The notes: a model not told the origin generated them from the letters alone. 64,000 bases of DNA from an uncultured Steroidobacteraceae bacterium (GCA_964468395.1 CAYXUJ010000003.1:18190-82189), one strand, 5' to 3'. Counted from the first letter of the stretch, positions 4,537 to 21,598 are shown. Program-made: numbers and translations.

Positions 4537-4612
4537 GGCCAGGTAGCTCAGTTGGTAGAGCAGCGGACTGAAAATCCGCGTGTCGGTGGTTCGATTCCGC
4601 CCCTGGCCACCA
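4537..4612 (+). tRNA. tRNA-Phe (anticodon GAA), CCA encoded
   Basis: A 76-nt cloverleaf folded by hand. Acceptor GGCCAGG/CCTGGCC, D arm GCTC-AGTTGGTA-GAGC, anticodon arm GCGGA-CTGAAAA-TCCGC, T arm GGTGG-TTCGATT-CCGCC, discriminator A plus CCA. Confidence 0.95.
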
Positions 4613-4647
4613 TCTTGCGAGCGGTATATTTGGCGGGGACTTTACGT

Positions 4648-5346
4648 CTAGTAGCCGAAGAACTCCTCACTGCGCACGTCGTCGTCACTGACCGCCGCAT
4701 TGGCTAAAAGCTGCCGCAGGGCGGCGACCATCAATGGGGAGCCAGTAACGTAGTAGATGGCGGCGGCGGCCTCCTTCTTGATCTTGCCAATCAGGTGACC
4801 ATCGATGCGACCCGCGCCGTTGCTGCGCGTCATCATCGGCACCAGGCGGAAATGCCTGTAGTTGCGCTCAAGCTCCTGCAACTCGGCCAGAAACGCGGCA
4901 TCCTCCGGACGATGGTTCGAGTAAATCAGGATGAATCGCTGTGGAAGCCGGTCACGCGCCGCCTGCCGCAGGATGCTCATGAACGGCGTGATGCCGATGC
5001 CGCCCGCAATGAACACCGCCGGCCGAGAGCGACTGGAATGCAGGGTCAGGGATCCGAACGGTCCATCCAGTCCTGCGGTCGAGCCGACCGGCATAGCCGC
5101 CAGGGCGTTCTTGAACGCACTGCTGCGAATGCGCGTCGCGATGGTGATCACGTCTTCGGACGGCGCACTGACTAGTGAGAATGCATGGCGTGCACTGGCC
5201 GGATCGGCGGATGGCCGTCCGCCCAGAACCAAGTCGATGGCCTGGCCGGGTTTGAAACTGAACCTCGCGGGCTTCTGAAAATGAAACGCCATGGTTCGAT
5301 CGGCAATCTCATCTCGACCCTTCAGCAGTACGTTGTGCGCAGTCAT
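4648..5346 (-). CDS. ferredoxin-NADP reductase-type FAD/NAD(P)-binding oxidoreductase
   Basis: 232 aa. FAD-binding beta-barrel motif (RHAFSLVS) and NAD(P)-binding motif (VFIAGGIGITPFMS). The start overlaps the folE2 stop by 4 nt (5343-5346). Confidence 0.75.
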   Translation of the reverse strand: MTAHNVLLKGRDEIADRTMAFHFQKPARFSFKPGQAIDLVLGGRPSADPASARHAFSLVSAPSEDVITIATRIRSSAFKNALAAMPVGSTAGLDGPFGSLTLHSSRSRPAVFIAGGIGITPFMSILRQAARDRLPQRFILIYSNHRPEDAAFLAELQELERNYRHFRLVPMMTRSNGAGRIDGHLIGKIKKEAAAAIYYVTGSPLMVAALRQLLANAAVSDDDVRSEEFFGY

Positions 5347-6152
5347 GCATCTGCCTTCGGTGGCCGAGCCAGGCGAGCAAAGGCGGAGTGGTTGTGGATC
5401 GACTCAAAGTTCTCGGCTTCGACCACAAAGGCGCGCACCAGTGGTTCCCGATTCAATTCGAGTGCGACGTCCCTTACGAGATCCTCCGCGAACTTCGGAT
5501 TCTCATAGGCTCGCTCGGTCACGTACTTTTCGTCCGCGCGTTTAAGCAAGCCATACACCTCACAGGACGCGCTGCGTTCGGCGGCCGCAATCAGGCTCTC
5601 GATTTCCATCTCGCCTGTGAGCTCCGCCTCGATACGAATGATCGAGCGTTGATTGTGAGCACCATAGGATGAAATCTCCTTGGAGCAGGGACACAAGCTG
5701 GTCGCTGGCACCGACACTCGTATCCAGAACGAGTACTGTGAATCCGCGAAAACTCGGCCGCGCCAGCAGACCTCGTAATCCAGCTGGCTCTGGATTCCTG
5801 ACACCGGGGCGGCTTTCGTCACGAAATACGGGAACCGCATCTCGATTTCGCCACTCGGCGCGTCGAGCCTGGCCAGCATTTCAAGCAGCAGCGCCTTGAA
5901 GCTTCGCTGATCCAGCGGCCGCGCTTGCGACTCCAACAACTCAACGAAACGCGACATGTGGGTGCCTTTCGTCGCCGCAGCCAGGCCTACGCTCATCGTG
6001 AACGTCGCGATGGTCGGGACAATGCGCCGACCCGCCAGGATCCGGATCGGGCAGCGAATGTCCCTGATGCCGACGGCCTCGATGCCCAGGTCACGACTGT
6101 CCGGTCGTGACTGGACATCGGGCAGGAATGCGATTGCGGCTGCCGGGCTCAT
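5343..6152 (-). CDS. folE2: GTP cyclohydrolase I type 2 (GCYH-IB)
   Basis: 269 aa. Carries the FolE2 signatures TSLCPCSKEISSYGAHNQRS, GTHMSRF and ENFESIHNHSA. Confidence 0.85.
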   Translation of the reverse strand: MSPAAAIAFLPDVQSRPDSRDLGIEAVGIRDIRCPIRILAGRRIVPTIATFTMSVGLAAATKGTHMSRFVELLESQARPLDQRSFKALLLEMLARLDAPSGEIEMRFPYFVTKAAPVSGIQSQLDYEVCWRGRVFADSQYSFWIRVSVPATSLCPCSKEISSYGAHNQRSIIRIEAELTGEMEIESLIAAAERSASCEVYGLLKRADEKYVTERAYENPKFAEDLVRDVALELNREPLVRAFVVEAENFESIHNHSAFARLARPPKADA

Positions 6153-6164
6153 GACCGTGGCAAC

Positions 6165-19604: not shown

Positions 19605-19881
19605 CCGCGTCAACCGACGAGGTTGCGGATCAGTACAATCAGACCGACGAGAACGGCGTCCTGCCCGAAGAGTGGCGCGCTGCGCGAACTGCCGCGCCGC
19701 ATAGCTGGTTCGTAAGTGCATCCAAGTCGGCCCGTGAGAAAGCTAACATACGAAGGTTTGTCCATTGCGGCACTTCGTTAGCGTCGTACTCCATTCTCAG
19801 TCGCCAGCCGAGCAGATATTTTCAAAGACCAACCTTTGAGGTTCGGTACGGGTTCGTTTCCAGCCGGGAGCAGAGTCTGCT

Positions 19882-21486
19882 TCAGAATTCGAGGCGCTGA
19901 CTCTCCAGGTACTCGTCGTAGCTGCCGGTGAAGTCGGCGAAGCTGCCGTCAGACTTCAGTTCGATCATGCGGGTGGCGAGGGCACCCACGAACTCACGAT
20001 CATGTGAGACGAAGACCAGCGTGCCCGGATACTTCTCGAGGCCGATCTGGAGCGACTCGATGGTCTCCATGTCCATGTGGTTCGTCGGCTCATCCAGGAG
20101 CATCACGTTCGGTCGTGTCAGCATGAGCTTGCCGTAGATCATGCGTCCTTTCTCGCCGCCGGAGAGCACCTTGACGGACTTCTTCGCCTCGTCTCCCGAA
20201 AACAGGAGCCGGCCGAGAGTCGCGCGCACGATCTGGTCGTCGTCCGCCTTGCCGGTCCACGTGGACATCCATGCGAAGAGATCGGCCCTGGTTTCGAACT
20301 CCCCCTGCGGATCCTGGGGCATGTAGCCGGTCTGGGCATTCTCGACCCAGGTGATGCGGCCGGCGGTCGGCTTCAGCTCGCCTGCGAGACATCGCATCAA
20401 CGTCGTCTTGCCGATGCCGTTCGGGCCGATGATCGCCACCCGCTGCTCTGCCAGGATCGTGAAACTGAGGTTCGTGAAGACGTCGGTGCTGGTCCCGGGA
20501 TAGCGAAACGTCAGGCCTTCGACGGTGACGGCCGAGCGGTGGAGCCTGCGGGCCTGCTCGAAGCGGATGTACGGGTTCTGACGCGACGAAGGGCGGATCT
20601 CCTCGATCTTGATCTTTTCGATCTGCCGCTTTCGCGACGTGGCCTGTCGTGCTTTCGACGCATTCGCGGAGAAGCGCCGAACGAACTCCTGCAGGTCCGA
20701 GATCTGCGCCTTGGCCCTGGCATTGGCAGACTCCACACGCTGGCGGGCCTGCACCGAGGCGAGCATGAAGTCGTCGTAGTTGCCCGGGTACACCTTGAGC
20801 TGCTGGTAGTCGAGGTCCGCGATGTGCGTGCACACCTGGTTGAGGAAGTGCCGGTCGTGGCTGATGATGATCATCGTCGCATCGTGCGAGTTGAGCGCTT
20901 TTTCGAGCCAGCCGATCGAGTGGATGTCGAGATTGTTCGTCGGCTCGTCGAGCAGCAGCACATCGGGGCGCGAATACAGCGCCTGTGCGAGCAGGACGCG
21001 CAATTTGAGGCCGGGGGGCACTTCGCGCATCAGAAGATCGTGCTTCGACTCGTCGATGCCCGCGTCGATCAGGGTGGCTCCCGCGCGGGCTTCGGCCGTG
21101 TAGCCGTCGTACTCGGCGACCTTTGCCTCCAGCTCTGCGGCCCTGAGGTAGTCATGGTCGGTCGCGTTCGGGTCGGCATAGATGCGGTCGCGCTCGTGAA
21201 TCGTGCGCCAGAGTTCGACGTGTCCCTGCAACACGACGTCGAGGACGCGCTGGTCCTCGTAACCGAACTGGTTCTGGCTGAGCTTGCCCATGCGCAGCCC
21301 GGACTGCAGCACCACGTCGCCCGAACTCGGCTCCAGTTCGCCGCCCAGGACCTTCATGAGCGTGGTCTTGCCGCTGCCATTCGCCCCGATGAGGCCGTAG
21401 CGGTTGCCGTCCACGAACTTGACCGAGACGTTCTCGAACAGGGGTTTCGCATCGAACTGGATCGATAGATTGGTCGTGGAGAGCAT
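19882..21486 (-). CDS. ybiT: ABC-F family ATPase, YbiT-like
   Basis: 534 aa, alignable by eye along its full length to E. coli YbiT. Two ABC cassettes are present (GANGSGKTT / LLLDEPTNNLD; GPNGIGKTT / LSGGEKGR / MLLDEPTNHMD). Confidence 0.88.
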   Translation of the reverse strand: MLSTTNLSIQFDAKPLFENVSVKFVDGNRYGLIGANGSGKTTLMKVLGGELEPSSGDVVLQSGLRMGKLSQNQFGYEDQRVLDVVLQGHVELWRTIHERDRIYADPNATDHDYLRAAELEAKVAEYDGYTAEARAGATLIDAGIDESKHDLLMREVPPGLKLRVLLAQALYSRPDVLLLDEPTNNLDIHSIGWLEKALNSHDATMIIISHDRHFLNQVCTHIADLDYQQLKVYPGNYDDFMLASVQARQRVESANARAKAQISDLQEFVRRFSANASKARQATSRKRQIEKIKIEEIRPSSRQNPYIRFEQARRLHRSAVTVEGLTFRYPGTSTDVFTNLSFTILAEQRVAIIGPNGIGKTTLMRCLAGELKPTAGRITWVENAQTGYMPQDPQGEFETRADLFAWMSTWTGKADDDQIVRATLGRLLFSGDEAKKSVKVLSGGEKGRMIYGKLMLTRPNVMLLDEPTNHMDMETIESLQIGLEKYPGTLVFVSHDREFVGALATRMIELKSDGSFADFTGSYDEYLESQRLEF

Positions 21487-21550
21487 GGAGCCCCGGGCGG
21501 CGAGGGAAAGGGTTGGCCGGCGAGTGCCGGGCGCGCAGTCTAGCTGATTA

Positions 21551-21598
21551 CGGACAAGAATCCGCGTGTCGGCGTTTCGATTCCGCCCCTGGGCACCC
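21551..21598 (+). repeat. decayed copy of the tRNA-Phe 3' half (older att-like scar)
   Basis: The sequence CGGACaaGAA-TCCGCGTGTCGGcGtTTCGATTCCGCCCCTGGgCACCc aligns to tRNA positions about 4564-4612. It has identical blocks of 12 and 17 nt, several substitutions and 1 indel. Same strand; no 5' half. Confidence 0.5.

Follow-up and report, generated by a model that had tools for sequence, protein, structure and literature searches.

Tandem accretion at an attachment (att) site, together with the cis-mobilizable elements (CIMEs) that accrete there, has been described for the islands related to the integrative and conjugative elements (ICEs) ICESt1 and ICESt3 of Streptococcus thermophilus (Pavlovic 2004; Bellanger 2011; as reviewed in PMC5704250). 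Once CIMEs have accreted, incoming elements can use either flanking att site (PMC5704250). Additive flexible islands are known from Alteromonas, in which a single Phe-tRNA is the hotspot of fGI1 and a 52-nt repeat of the tRNA-Leu 3′ end marks another island (PMC3698932; PMC4119200), and fGI-2 of 'Ca. Methylopumilus' contains recurring tRNA-Lys 3′ repeats comprising the last 20 nt (PMC10872708). In Prochlorococcus, neighboring tycheposons are separated only by a partial tRNA, with newcomers pushing older elements inward, and partial tRNAs scattered through the islands are traces of older events (10.1101/2020.12.28.424599). The present study concerns a comparable locus within a 64,000-nt stretch of DNA (hereafter the window) from an uncultured Steroidobacteraceae bacterium (GCA_964468395.1, CAYXUJ010000003.1:18190-82189), in which an intact tRNA-Phe gene is followed by partial copies of its own 3′ part. 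With a probability of about 0.75, we consider the region from ~4.6 to 25.3 kb to be an additive genomic island, built by repeated site-specific recombination at one tRNA-Phe att site and composed of CIME-like segments. A preliminary description, made from the sequence alone, had read the locus as the stacked footprint of integration into a tRNA 3′ end; composition, an empty site, parallel arrays in relatives, and attP-like viral sites all support that reading.

The intact tRNA-Phe(GAA) gene at 4537-4612 (plus strand; ARAGORN; Rfam tRNA 72.4 bits) is the sole tRNA detected by ARAGORN within the window, and it is the target of integration and provides attL for the array. Its 3′ end reads ...CCTGGCCACCA, the sequence from 4613 onward reads TCTTGCGAGCGG, and that from 16209 onward reads TCCATCTCAAAGTGC. 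The att identity block inside the gene (copy 1, 4565-4614, plus strand) runs from the 5′ strand of the anticodon stem to the CCA end and 2 nt beyond, comprising the last 48 nt of the tRNA plus two. The exact same-strand recurrence of this 50-mer at 16161-16210, reported in the preliminary description, was reproduced (copy 2, attR of segment A, plus strand; 50/50 identical to copy 1, with 0 matches in 100 shuffles). The decayed third copy, which had been placed near 21551-21598, was likewise recovered at 21551-21600 (plus strand), with 40/50 positions identical without gaps, 36/39 (92%) over 21559-21597, and an nhmmer E-value of 1.3e-6. A fourth, strongly decayed candidate lies at 23341-23390, in register and on the same strand (plus), in an intergenic spacer (33/50 identical; nhmmer E = 0.016). 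It has the best local score of any sequence in the window outside the other copies; the runner-up 50-mer reaches 28/50, and a value of 33 was reached in none of 200 Markov-simulated 64-kb sequences.

The copies delimit segments A (4615-16160), B (16211-21550), C (21601-23340), and D (23391-25367). The tandem stacking proposed earlier therefore stands, and the sizes given for the two segments recognized at the time, about 11.5 and 5.3 kb, agree with the 11,546 and 5,340 nt of segments A and B; the count of two does not hold, as copy 4 had been overlooked and the array comprises at least three, probably four, segments. Identity to the tRNA drops outward from the gene, from 100% to 80% to 66%. 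The 60 nt immediately 5′ of each partial copy, in the window and in relatives, bear no likeness to the tRNA 5′ half beyond that of shuffled sequence (p 0.37-0.99), indicating that the partial copies are true 3′ fragments, as had been claimed. Copy 3 and the ybiT-adjacent copies of two other loci, L169 and L171, were also considered as decayed full-length tRNAs, a possibility rejected because their upstream flanks are at shuffle level (p 0.37-0.99). ARAGORN calls a 71-nt pseudo-'tRNA-Ala' in L171, to which little weight was given.

The array has compositional boundaries as well. G+C is 0.70-0.74 upstream of the tRNA, falls to ~0.60 from exactly the tRNA 3′ end, lies between 0.56 and 0.69 as far as 25.0 kb, and is back at 0.70-0.74 from ~25.3 kb; the low-GC block thus extends to ~25.3 kb, not 21.6 kb. 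At third codon positions (GC3), core genes have a G+C of 0.88-0.97, compared with 0.66-0.75 in segment A (segment G+C 0.56-0.63), 0.83-0.86 in segment B, 0.82-0.90 in segment C, and 0.72 in the single 613-aa gene of segment D (23453-25294). The compositional deviation that the preliminary description had proposed to look for is therefore present, with GC3 low in A and D; departure from the host is clear for these two segments and weak for B and C. Beyond the array, the native right flank (25368-26355, plus strand; identified by alignment to relatives and by Pfam Peptidase_M23) consists of a conserved block at 25368-25419 and the M23 peptidase gene that it precedes, at 25420-26355.

Comparison with related genomes, reached through the contexts of MutY, M23, and YbiT homologs, places this array at a shared locus. 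The closest named relatives of the window MutY (1767-2909) are 68-71% identical and belong to Steroidobacteraceae metagenome-assembled genomes, and a subclade of the family shares the frame DUF748-MutY-YggX-tRNA-Phe ... M23 peptidase-bactofilin. In four relatives (L164, L166, L168, and L172) tRNA-Phe occurs in this same frame, after MutY-YggX. The distance from tRNA-Phe to M23 is 178 nt in L172, where nothing intervenes and the site is empty; 1.8 kb in L166, which has one islet followed by a partial tRNA copy; 3.1 kb in L164, with one low-GC islet, a partial copy, and then a DUF6524 gene; 5.5 kb in L168, with two islets each closed by a perfect partial copy; and 20.8 kb in the window. Cassette number at the same locus thus varies from 0 (L172) through 1 (L164, L166) and 2 (L168) to 3-4 (window), and islet cargo is unrelated between genomes. 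In all of the relatives' partial copies, identity with the tRNA starts at positions 29-32 and ends 1-3 nt past CCA.

The sequence following the outermost copies of L166 and L168 is the native sequence that follows the intact tRNA in L172, as serial insertion into the tRNA predicts, and window positions 25368-25419 align with that same sequence in all three relatives. The preliminary description had suggested a search for empty sites and had held that a gene order shared by all relatives from tRNA-Phe onward, with no empty site, would speak against integration. Relatives were found instead to carry variable islets, and L172, with its tRNA 178 nt from M23, to be empty—at family level only, with core identities of ~75%. 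The hotspot is conserved across genera while its content turns over completely. The tRNA-M23 adjacency is confined to a subclade, since the M23 homolog of a more distant lineage, L194, has no tRNA-Phe nearby. The symporter of the left flank, used as a search anchor, gave best matches of 74% identity with neither synteny nor tRNA-Phe. A candidate fifth, outermost vestige of the tRNA at 25343-25356 (13/14 identical to the tRNA end) is within noise and out of alignment with the tRNA end of L172, L166, and L168.

Several further features of these loci were recorded. The tRNA-Phe genes of L164, L166, and L168 each have their own compensated T-stem variant (GGTGG/CCACC, GCTGG/CCGGC, and GGGTG/CACCC). 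The DUF6524 gene lies between YggX and tRNA-Phe in L172 (9222-9644), and after a partial copy in L164 (13937-14419) and L171 (623-1048). The left flank of the tRNA is variable and without repeats, containing a symporter in the window, a symporter and TPR-sulfotransferases in L165 and L167, and an S-methyltransferase in L168. In L167, transposase genes of insertion sequence type (an rve-domain protein and IstB; 14850-16960) directly follow tRNA-Phe, with no repeat-bounded islets, and in L165 a leuA-leuCD-leuB operon follows it.

Conserved non-coding sequence adjoins the repeats. In the window, a putative P arm of attP at 16050-16134 (plus strand) lies next to copy 2 and starts with TGCGGGAGTTTTGCGG; a counterpart with 86% identity over 86 nt adjoins the left side of the L164 partial copy (L164 13834-13918), where the cargo is unrelated. 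The TGCGGGAGTTTTGCGG motif, with one mismatch, is also found 49 nt after the L164 tRNA, and so at both ends of the L164 islet, as is the 16-nt motif TGCGGGARTTTTGCGG (including 11521-11536). A second arm family joins copy 2 of L168 and copy 4 of L169 (74% over ~76 nt), and TTRCGRGCG stands at -28/-29 of partial copies in L166 (13001), L168 (14357), and L169 (6330, reverse complement), as well as at +3 after the window tRNA (4615). Occurrence of the first motif at both ends of the L164 islet is the pattern expected for arm-type protein-binding sites, and the arm shared by the window and L164, with its 16-nt motif, is a candidate site for an integrase or accessory protein. The conserved arm attests to a common element family but does not reveal its kind. 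Metagenome loci with a cluster homologous to that around AcnA in segment A lack the window arm. An interpretation of the arm as a structured RNA was rejected (folding z = +1.3; no Rfam family).

Viral contigs offer a parallel to the att site itself. The exact 47-mer and a 31-nt arm pattern each have 0 matches in these contigs; the 16-nt motif has 78, none near a tRNA-Phe fragment, which we estimate to be about chance level for the size of the collection. A degenerate T-stem version of the tRNA tail, by comparison, gives 12 viral-contig matches, six of which comprise the 3′ part only, starting at tRNA positions 27-32. One virus-predicted contig, L186 (IMGVR_UViG_3300010396_000064), carries the exact 45-mer of the window mid-contig (7897-7941), with a tyrosine integrase (PF00589, 329 aa, 8008-8997) encoded 67 nt downstream that is 31% identical to the integrases of the lambdoid phages mEp390 and ST64B. 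It therefore seems that this att type is a real integrase target, and L186 is a candidate for the kind of helper able to act on the array.

No recombinase of this or any other kind was found in the segments. Pfam and NCBIfam scans of the open reading frames judged coding between 4.6 and 26.4 kb (chosen by length and GC3) returned no recombinase, excisionase, transposase, or transfer gene. Pfam searches of six-frame translations of the four largest gaps recovered only DUF488 and CMD genes and no recombinase; tblastn of the L186 phage integrase, which has the same att type, against the whole window gave nothing below E = 1; and a PHROGs scan of those window proteins lacking an assigned function had no match. 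These four scans bear out the earlier statement that the segments lack such genes, and the search for integrase remnants that had been suggested alongside it found none by Pfam on the six-frame gaps or by tblastn with the L186 integrase. The 215-aa, 261-aa, and 613-aa proteins were considered as hidden recombinases and rejected: each bears a signal peptide or a membrane anchor, and PHROGs returned no match for any of them. The islets of L164, L166, and L168 contain no integrase by Pfam records, integrase search, or PHROGs, nor do at least five cassettes of L169.

The clearest indication of exchange comes from ybiT. Its presence in segment B is confirmed (YbiT ABC-F ATPase, 19882-21486, minus strand; NCBIfam PRK15064, 872 bits against a cutoff of 762), and a module comprising the gene and repeat copy 3 (19884-21607, minus strand) is shared with L169 and L171. 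Nucleotide identity of the module is 94.4% to L169 and 93.4% to L171, with unlike neighbors at either end. One boundary of the homology is the ybiT stop codon; the other falls at 21573 inside the repeat (L169) or at 21607 just past it (L171). At the protein level, the L169 YbiT is 96% identical to that of the window; for ybiT in a native, tRNA-free context in another family member (L170), identity is no more than 83%. L171 is 92% identical to L164 in its other flank, with DUF6524, and the window core is ~75% identical to L164, the lineage to which L171 appears to belong. The simplest reading of these sequences is that the module moved horizontally between lineages, and its occurrence in differing flanks makes segment B composite. 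The preliminary description, regarding ybiT as normally a core gene, had considered the segment carrying it the weaker of its two islands; that ranking is reversed here, as the module is the best-documented mobile piece of the array, with 93-94% identity in differing flanks against a core identity of ~75%.

L169 is an array in its own right. This contig (1-11751; ENA ERZ25039547 contig_12226) has six tRNA-Phe 3′ fragments in the same orientation within 10 kb, at 9999-10071, 7833-7888, 6549-6600, 5358-5393, 3765-3814, and 1813-1864 (all on the minus strand). They separate mostly single, co-oriented genes (TIR-TPR, DUF3500, a trypsin-PDZ protease, an M28/M20 peptidase, and an ArsR and AHSA1 pair) with short spacers. 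At least five cassettes are present, the array runs past the 10 kb examined, and the tRNA-M23 frame is not on the contig. This layout looks integron-like. Distal to the ybiT repeat that they share, the window and L169 carry different cassettes. The two arrays therefore cannot both be products of insertion solely at the intact tRNA: either recombination takes place at internal repeats too, or the ybiT module entered the window and L169 in separate events. The order proposed in the preliminary description, with the newest insertion nearest the tRNA, consequently fits the decay gradient (100%, 80%, 66%) and fails as a sole rule.

These observations suggest the following mechanism. The att site would span the tRNA-Phe gene from the anticodon loop to the CCA end, and each incoming circular DNA would have brought its own copy of the tRNA 3′ part, which a tyrosine integrase would have recombined with the chromosomal tRNA gene, regenerating an intact tRNA and displacing the earlier tRNA tail outward as a direct repeat. 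Most segments may have been inserted and reshuffled by an integrase acting in trans, supplied by a phage or integrative element targeting the same site; L186 would be the one virus-predicted contig found of this supplier kind. Internal repeats presumably remain usable, such that cassettes could be gained, lost, or swapped at any repeat and not only at the tRNA. The identity and location of the integrase, and the present-day mobility of the array, are inferred. Immobility of the segments, as the preliminary description had it, is not shown, and the arm and the shared ybiT module suggest that pieces may be movable in trans.

A less likely but serious alternative, in our assessment, is that each segment is the dead stump of a separate prophage, ICE, or integrative and mobilizable element (IME), whose integrase and backbone were later deleted, leaving the repeats as inert scars. 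Such deletion is the standard proposed origin of CIMEs (PMC5704250), and the decay of copies 3 and 4 is compatible with it, as is the position of the L186 integrase, which adjoins att on what would be the tRNA-abutting side, where tRNA-proximal islet ends have no such gene. The perfect repeat and strongly foreign composition of segment A mark it as recent, yet its first cargo gene lies only 35 nt from the tRNA; nor is there an integrase fragment, phage gene, or conjugation gene in the window segments, the islets of L164, L166, and L168, or at least five cassettes of L169. Inert scars are also difficult to reconcile with arms conserved despite unrelated cargo and with a ybiT module nearly identical in three contexts. 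Supply in trans is accordingly more likely than a separate self-mobile ancestor for each segment, given around a dozen segments in five arrays without a trace of a recombinase, conserved arms beside different cargo, and a module shared across lineages. More doubtful still is the possibility that the tRNA-Phe locus is an integron-like capture platform, with integrase-less cassettes consisting of cargo, a conserved arm of ~100 nt, and a 48-nt tRNA-Phe tail. A recombinase encoded elsewhere, by the host or a helper, may in that case routinely excise, exchange, and reinsert cassettes at any repeat, and the repeats would be working sites rather than scars.

Two further explanations were weighed. It is improbable that segment A, and possibly others, derives from a different organism with an identical tRNA-Phe tail and was spliced in at the 50-nt perfect repeat during assembly. 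The G+C of segment A is strongly unlike that of the core, the source is metagenome-like, and exact matches to the window FolE2 occur only on short contigs (its apparent source contig aside). One short contig, L081, stops 26 nt inside the repeat; this independent short-read contig, which covers part of segment A, ends in the tRNA 3′ half as expected of a repeat, and contigs of this type cannot confirm the linkage of segment A to the tRNA. A chimera, however, needs two switches at the 50-nt repeat, one in and one out; the arm at the right end of segment A has its homolog beside att in L164, a Steroidobacteraceae genome; and the same architecture appears in four independently assembled relatives. 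Local duplication of the tRNA 3′ half without any integrase, whether by slippage, unequal crossing-over, or tRNA duplication and decay, would account for copies that are same-strand and near the tRNA, and it is highly improbable. What lies between the copies is foreign in composition and differs from genome to genome without any relationship, the flanks hold no trace of a tRNA 5′ half, identity always begins at the anticodon stem, as it also does in the attP-like sites of virus-predicted contigs, and an empty site exists in L172. The preliminary description had named a duplication unrelated to integration as an outcome fatal to its own reading, and these same four observations contradict it.

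Several points nonetheless weigh against an additive island built by site-specific recombination at tRNA-Phe. The GC3 of segments B and C is near-native (0.82-0.90), copy 4 is only 66% identical, and segment D has no recognizable outer repeat. No integrase acting on these sites was found in the window or the examined flanks, and the trans-acting enzyme is hypothetical here. Current mobility is likewise a prediction. The closest relatives on long contigs have ~75% core identity, and the empty site accordingly holds at family rather than strain level. In each genome, the T stem of the partial copies is the variant peculiar to that genome, which fits exchange among close relatives and also gene conversion. 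Finally, the window is a metagenome-type contig, and assembly could have gone wrong at a 50-nt perfect repeat; apart from its apparent source contig, the only contigs with exact matches to window proteins are short ones from one set of runs, so the source is probably a metagenome assembly.

The cargo of the proposed additive island begins with segment A (11.5 kb; cargo only; Pfam and NCBIfam). Its minus strand encodes an FNR-like reductase (4648-5346), FolE2 (5343-6152), a secreted 215-aa protein with no assigned function (6165-6812), DUF488 (7546-7959), Rnk (8161-8664), a LysR regulator (8788-9714), the aconitase AcnA (9748-12462), and a second LysR regulator (12482-13330). A SufR-like helix-turn-helix regulator (6927-7562), an Fe/Mn superoxide dismutase (13346-14068), an AhpD-like CMD protein (14119-14529), and glutamate dehydrogenase (14658-15974) are encoded on the plus strand. 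Together these genes are a coherent oxidative-stress and metal-limitation set. Relatives of AcnA, 80-86% identical, occur in soil and rhizosphere metagenome contigs, and the gene set recurs there in rearranged form at 45-86% amino acid identity (loci L085-L163, e.g., L089, L151, and L155), sharing AcnA, two LysR regulators, superoxide dismutase, FolE2, the FNR-like reductase, Rnk, DUF488, and the secreted 215-aa protein. No tRNA lies within 10 kb of the AcnA cluster in those contigs. This variable but recurrent, tRNA-free neighborhood makes the cargo look like a piece of another lineage's chromosomal stress cluster, rather than a phage or ICE backbone; the neighborhood itself resembles a conserved gene cluster for oxidative stress and metal limitation. 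The possibility that segment A is a plasmid fragment was rejected, plasmid matches being to distant aconitases only (65-68%).

In segment B (5.3 kb; composite; Pfam and NCBIfam), ybiT is preceded by genes for a PAS-GGDEF-EAL protein (16297-18117, minus strand) and a MocR-type GntR/aminotransferase regulator (18171-19604, plus strand). Segment C (1.7 kb) encodes an NAD-binding Rossmann protein (21644-22528, plus strand) and a membrane-anchored, DUF6090-like protein of 261 aa (22545-23330, minus strand), assigned from weak Pfam matches and the translation. The 613-aa protein of segment D (minus strand) is secreted, with a signal peptide evident in translation, and has no Pfam, NCBIfam, or PHROGs family. 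Its gene, which GC3 marks as foreign, sits between the last recognizable repeat and the native M23 promoter region.

The locus presents a clean, well-bounded case of adaptive gene gain in the little-studied soil Steroidobacteraceae, the main gain being the 11.5-kb stress and metal-limitation package. The lack of an integrase, combined with conserved arms and a shared module, also makes it a testable case for cargo-only elements mobilized in trans, possibly an underestimated way in which genes move among soil bacteria. Two cautions for annotation follow: an island finder that depends on an integrase would overlook the array entirely, and ybiT, usually treated as core, can travel as island cargo.

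Among known systems, integration into tRNA genes is reportedly divided into sublocation classes, as set out by Williams in 2002. The att sublocation here, from the anticodon loop to the 3′ end, is that of lambdoid-type phage integration, and L186 combines the exact 45-mer with an integrase beside attP; the window differs in having no phage genes. Of the features of a tRNA-borne island, the intact tRNA, the same-strand repeat, and (at family level) the empty site are all present, and an integrase inside the island is lacking. A tycheposon is recognized by a tyrosine recombinase of its own and by replication or packaging modules; no segment was found to contain these, and fragmented integrases like those reported from Prochlorococcus were not found either. 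The likeness to a chromosomal integron is greatest in L169, where the genes are short, for the most part single, and co-oriented, with a recombination site after each; there is, however, no intI next to the array and no attI or attC, the repeats are tRNA fragments, the window segments are multigene and of mixed orientation, and no recombinase is encoded among the conserved neighbors MutY, YggX, M23, and bactofilin. Lacking a recombinase, the window falls outside the defining features of self-mobile islands, integrons, and tycheposons.

The resemblance is closest to CIMEs and additive islands. With CIMEs the array shares attL/attR direct repeats at the 3′ end of the target gene, an absence of integration and transfer genes, and tandem stacking, segments A, B, and C each being flanked by repeats on both sides with no such genes between. 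It differs in belonging to a soil gammaproteobacterium, in targeting tRNA-Phe, in having no partner ICE or IME, and, in L169, in including units of single genes; no backbone remnants that would attest descent from an ICE by deletion were found. With additive islands it shares a locus conserved across species, a variable number of cassettes, tRNA 3′ repeats, and lifestyle or stress cargo. Its repeats are longer, at 45-50 nt from the anticodon stem compared with the last 20 nt in Methylopumilus; the taxon and habitat are different, and conserved arms are present here. The window thus fits the structural definitions of both a CIME array and an additive island, and is of a kind already known.

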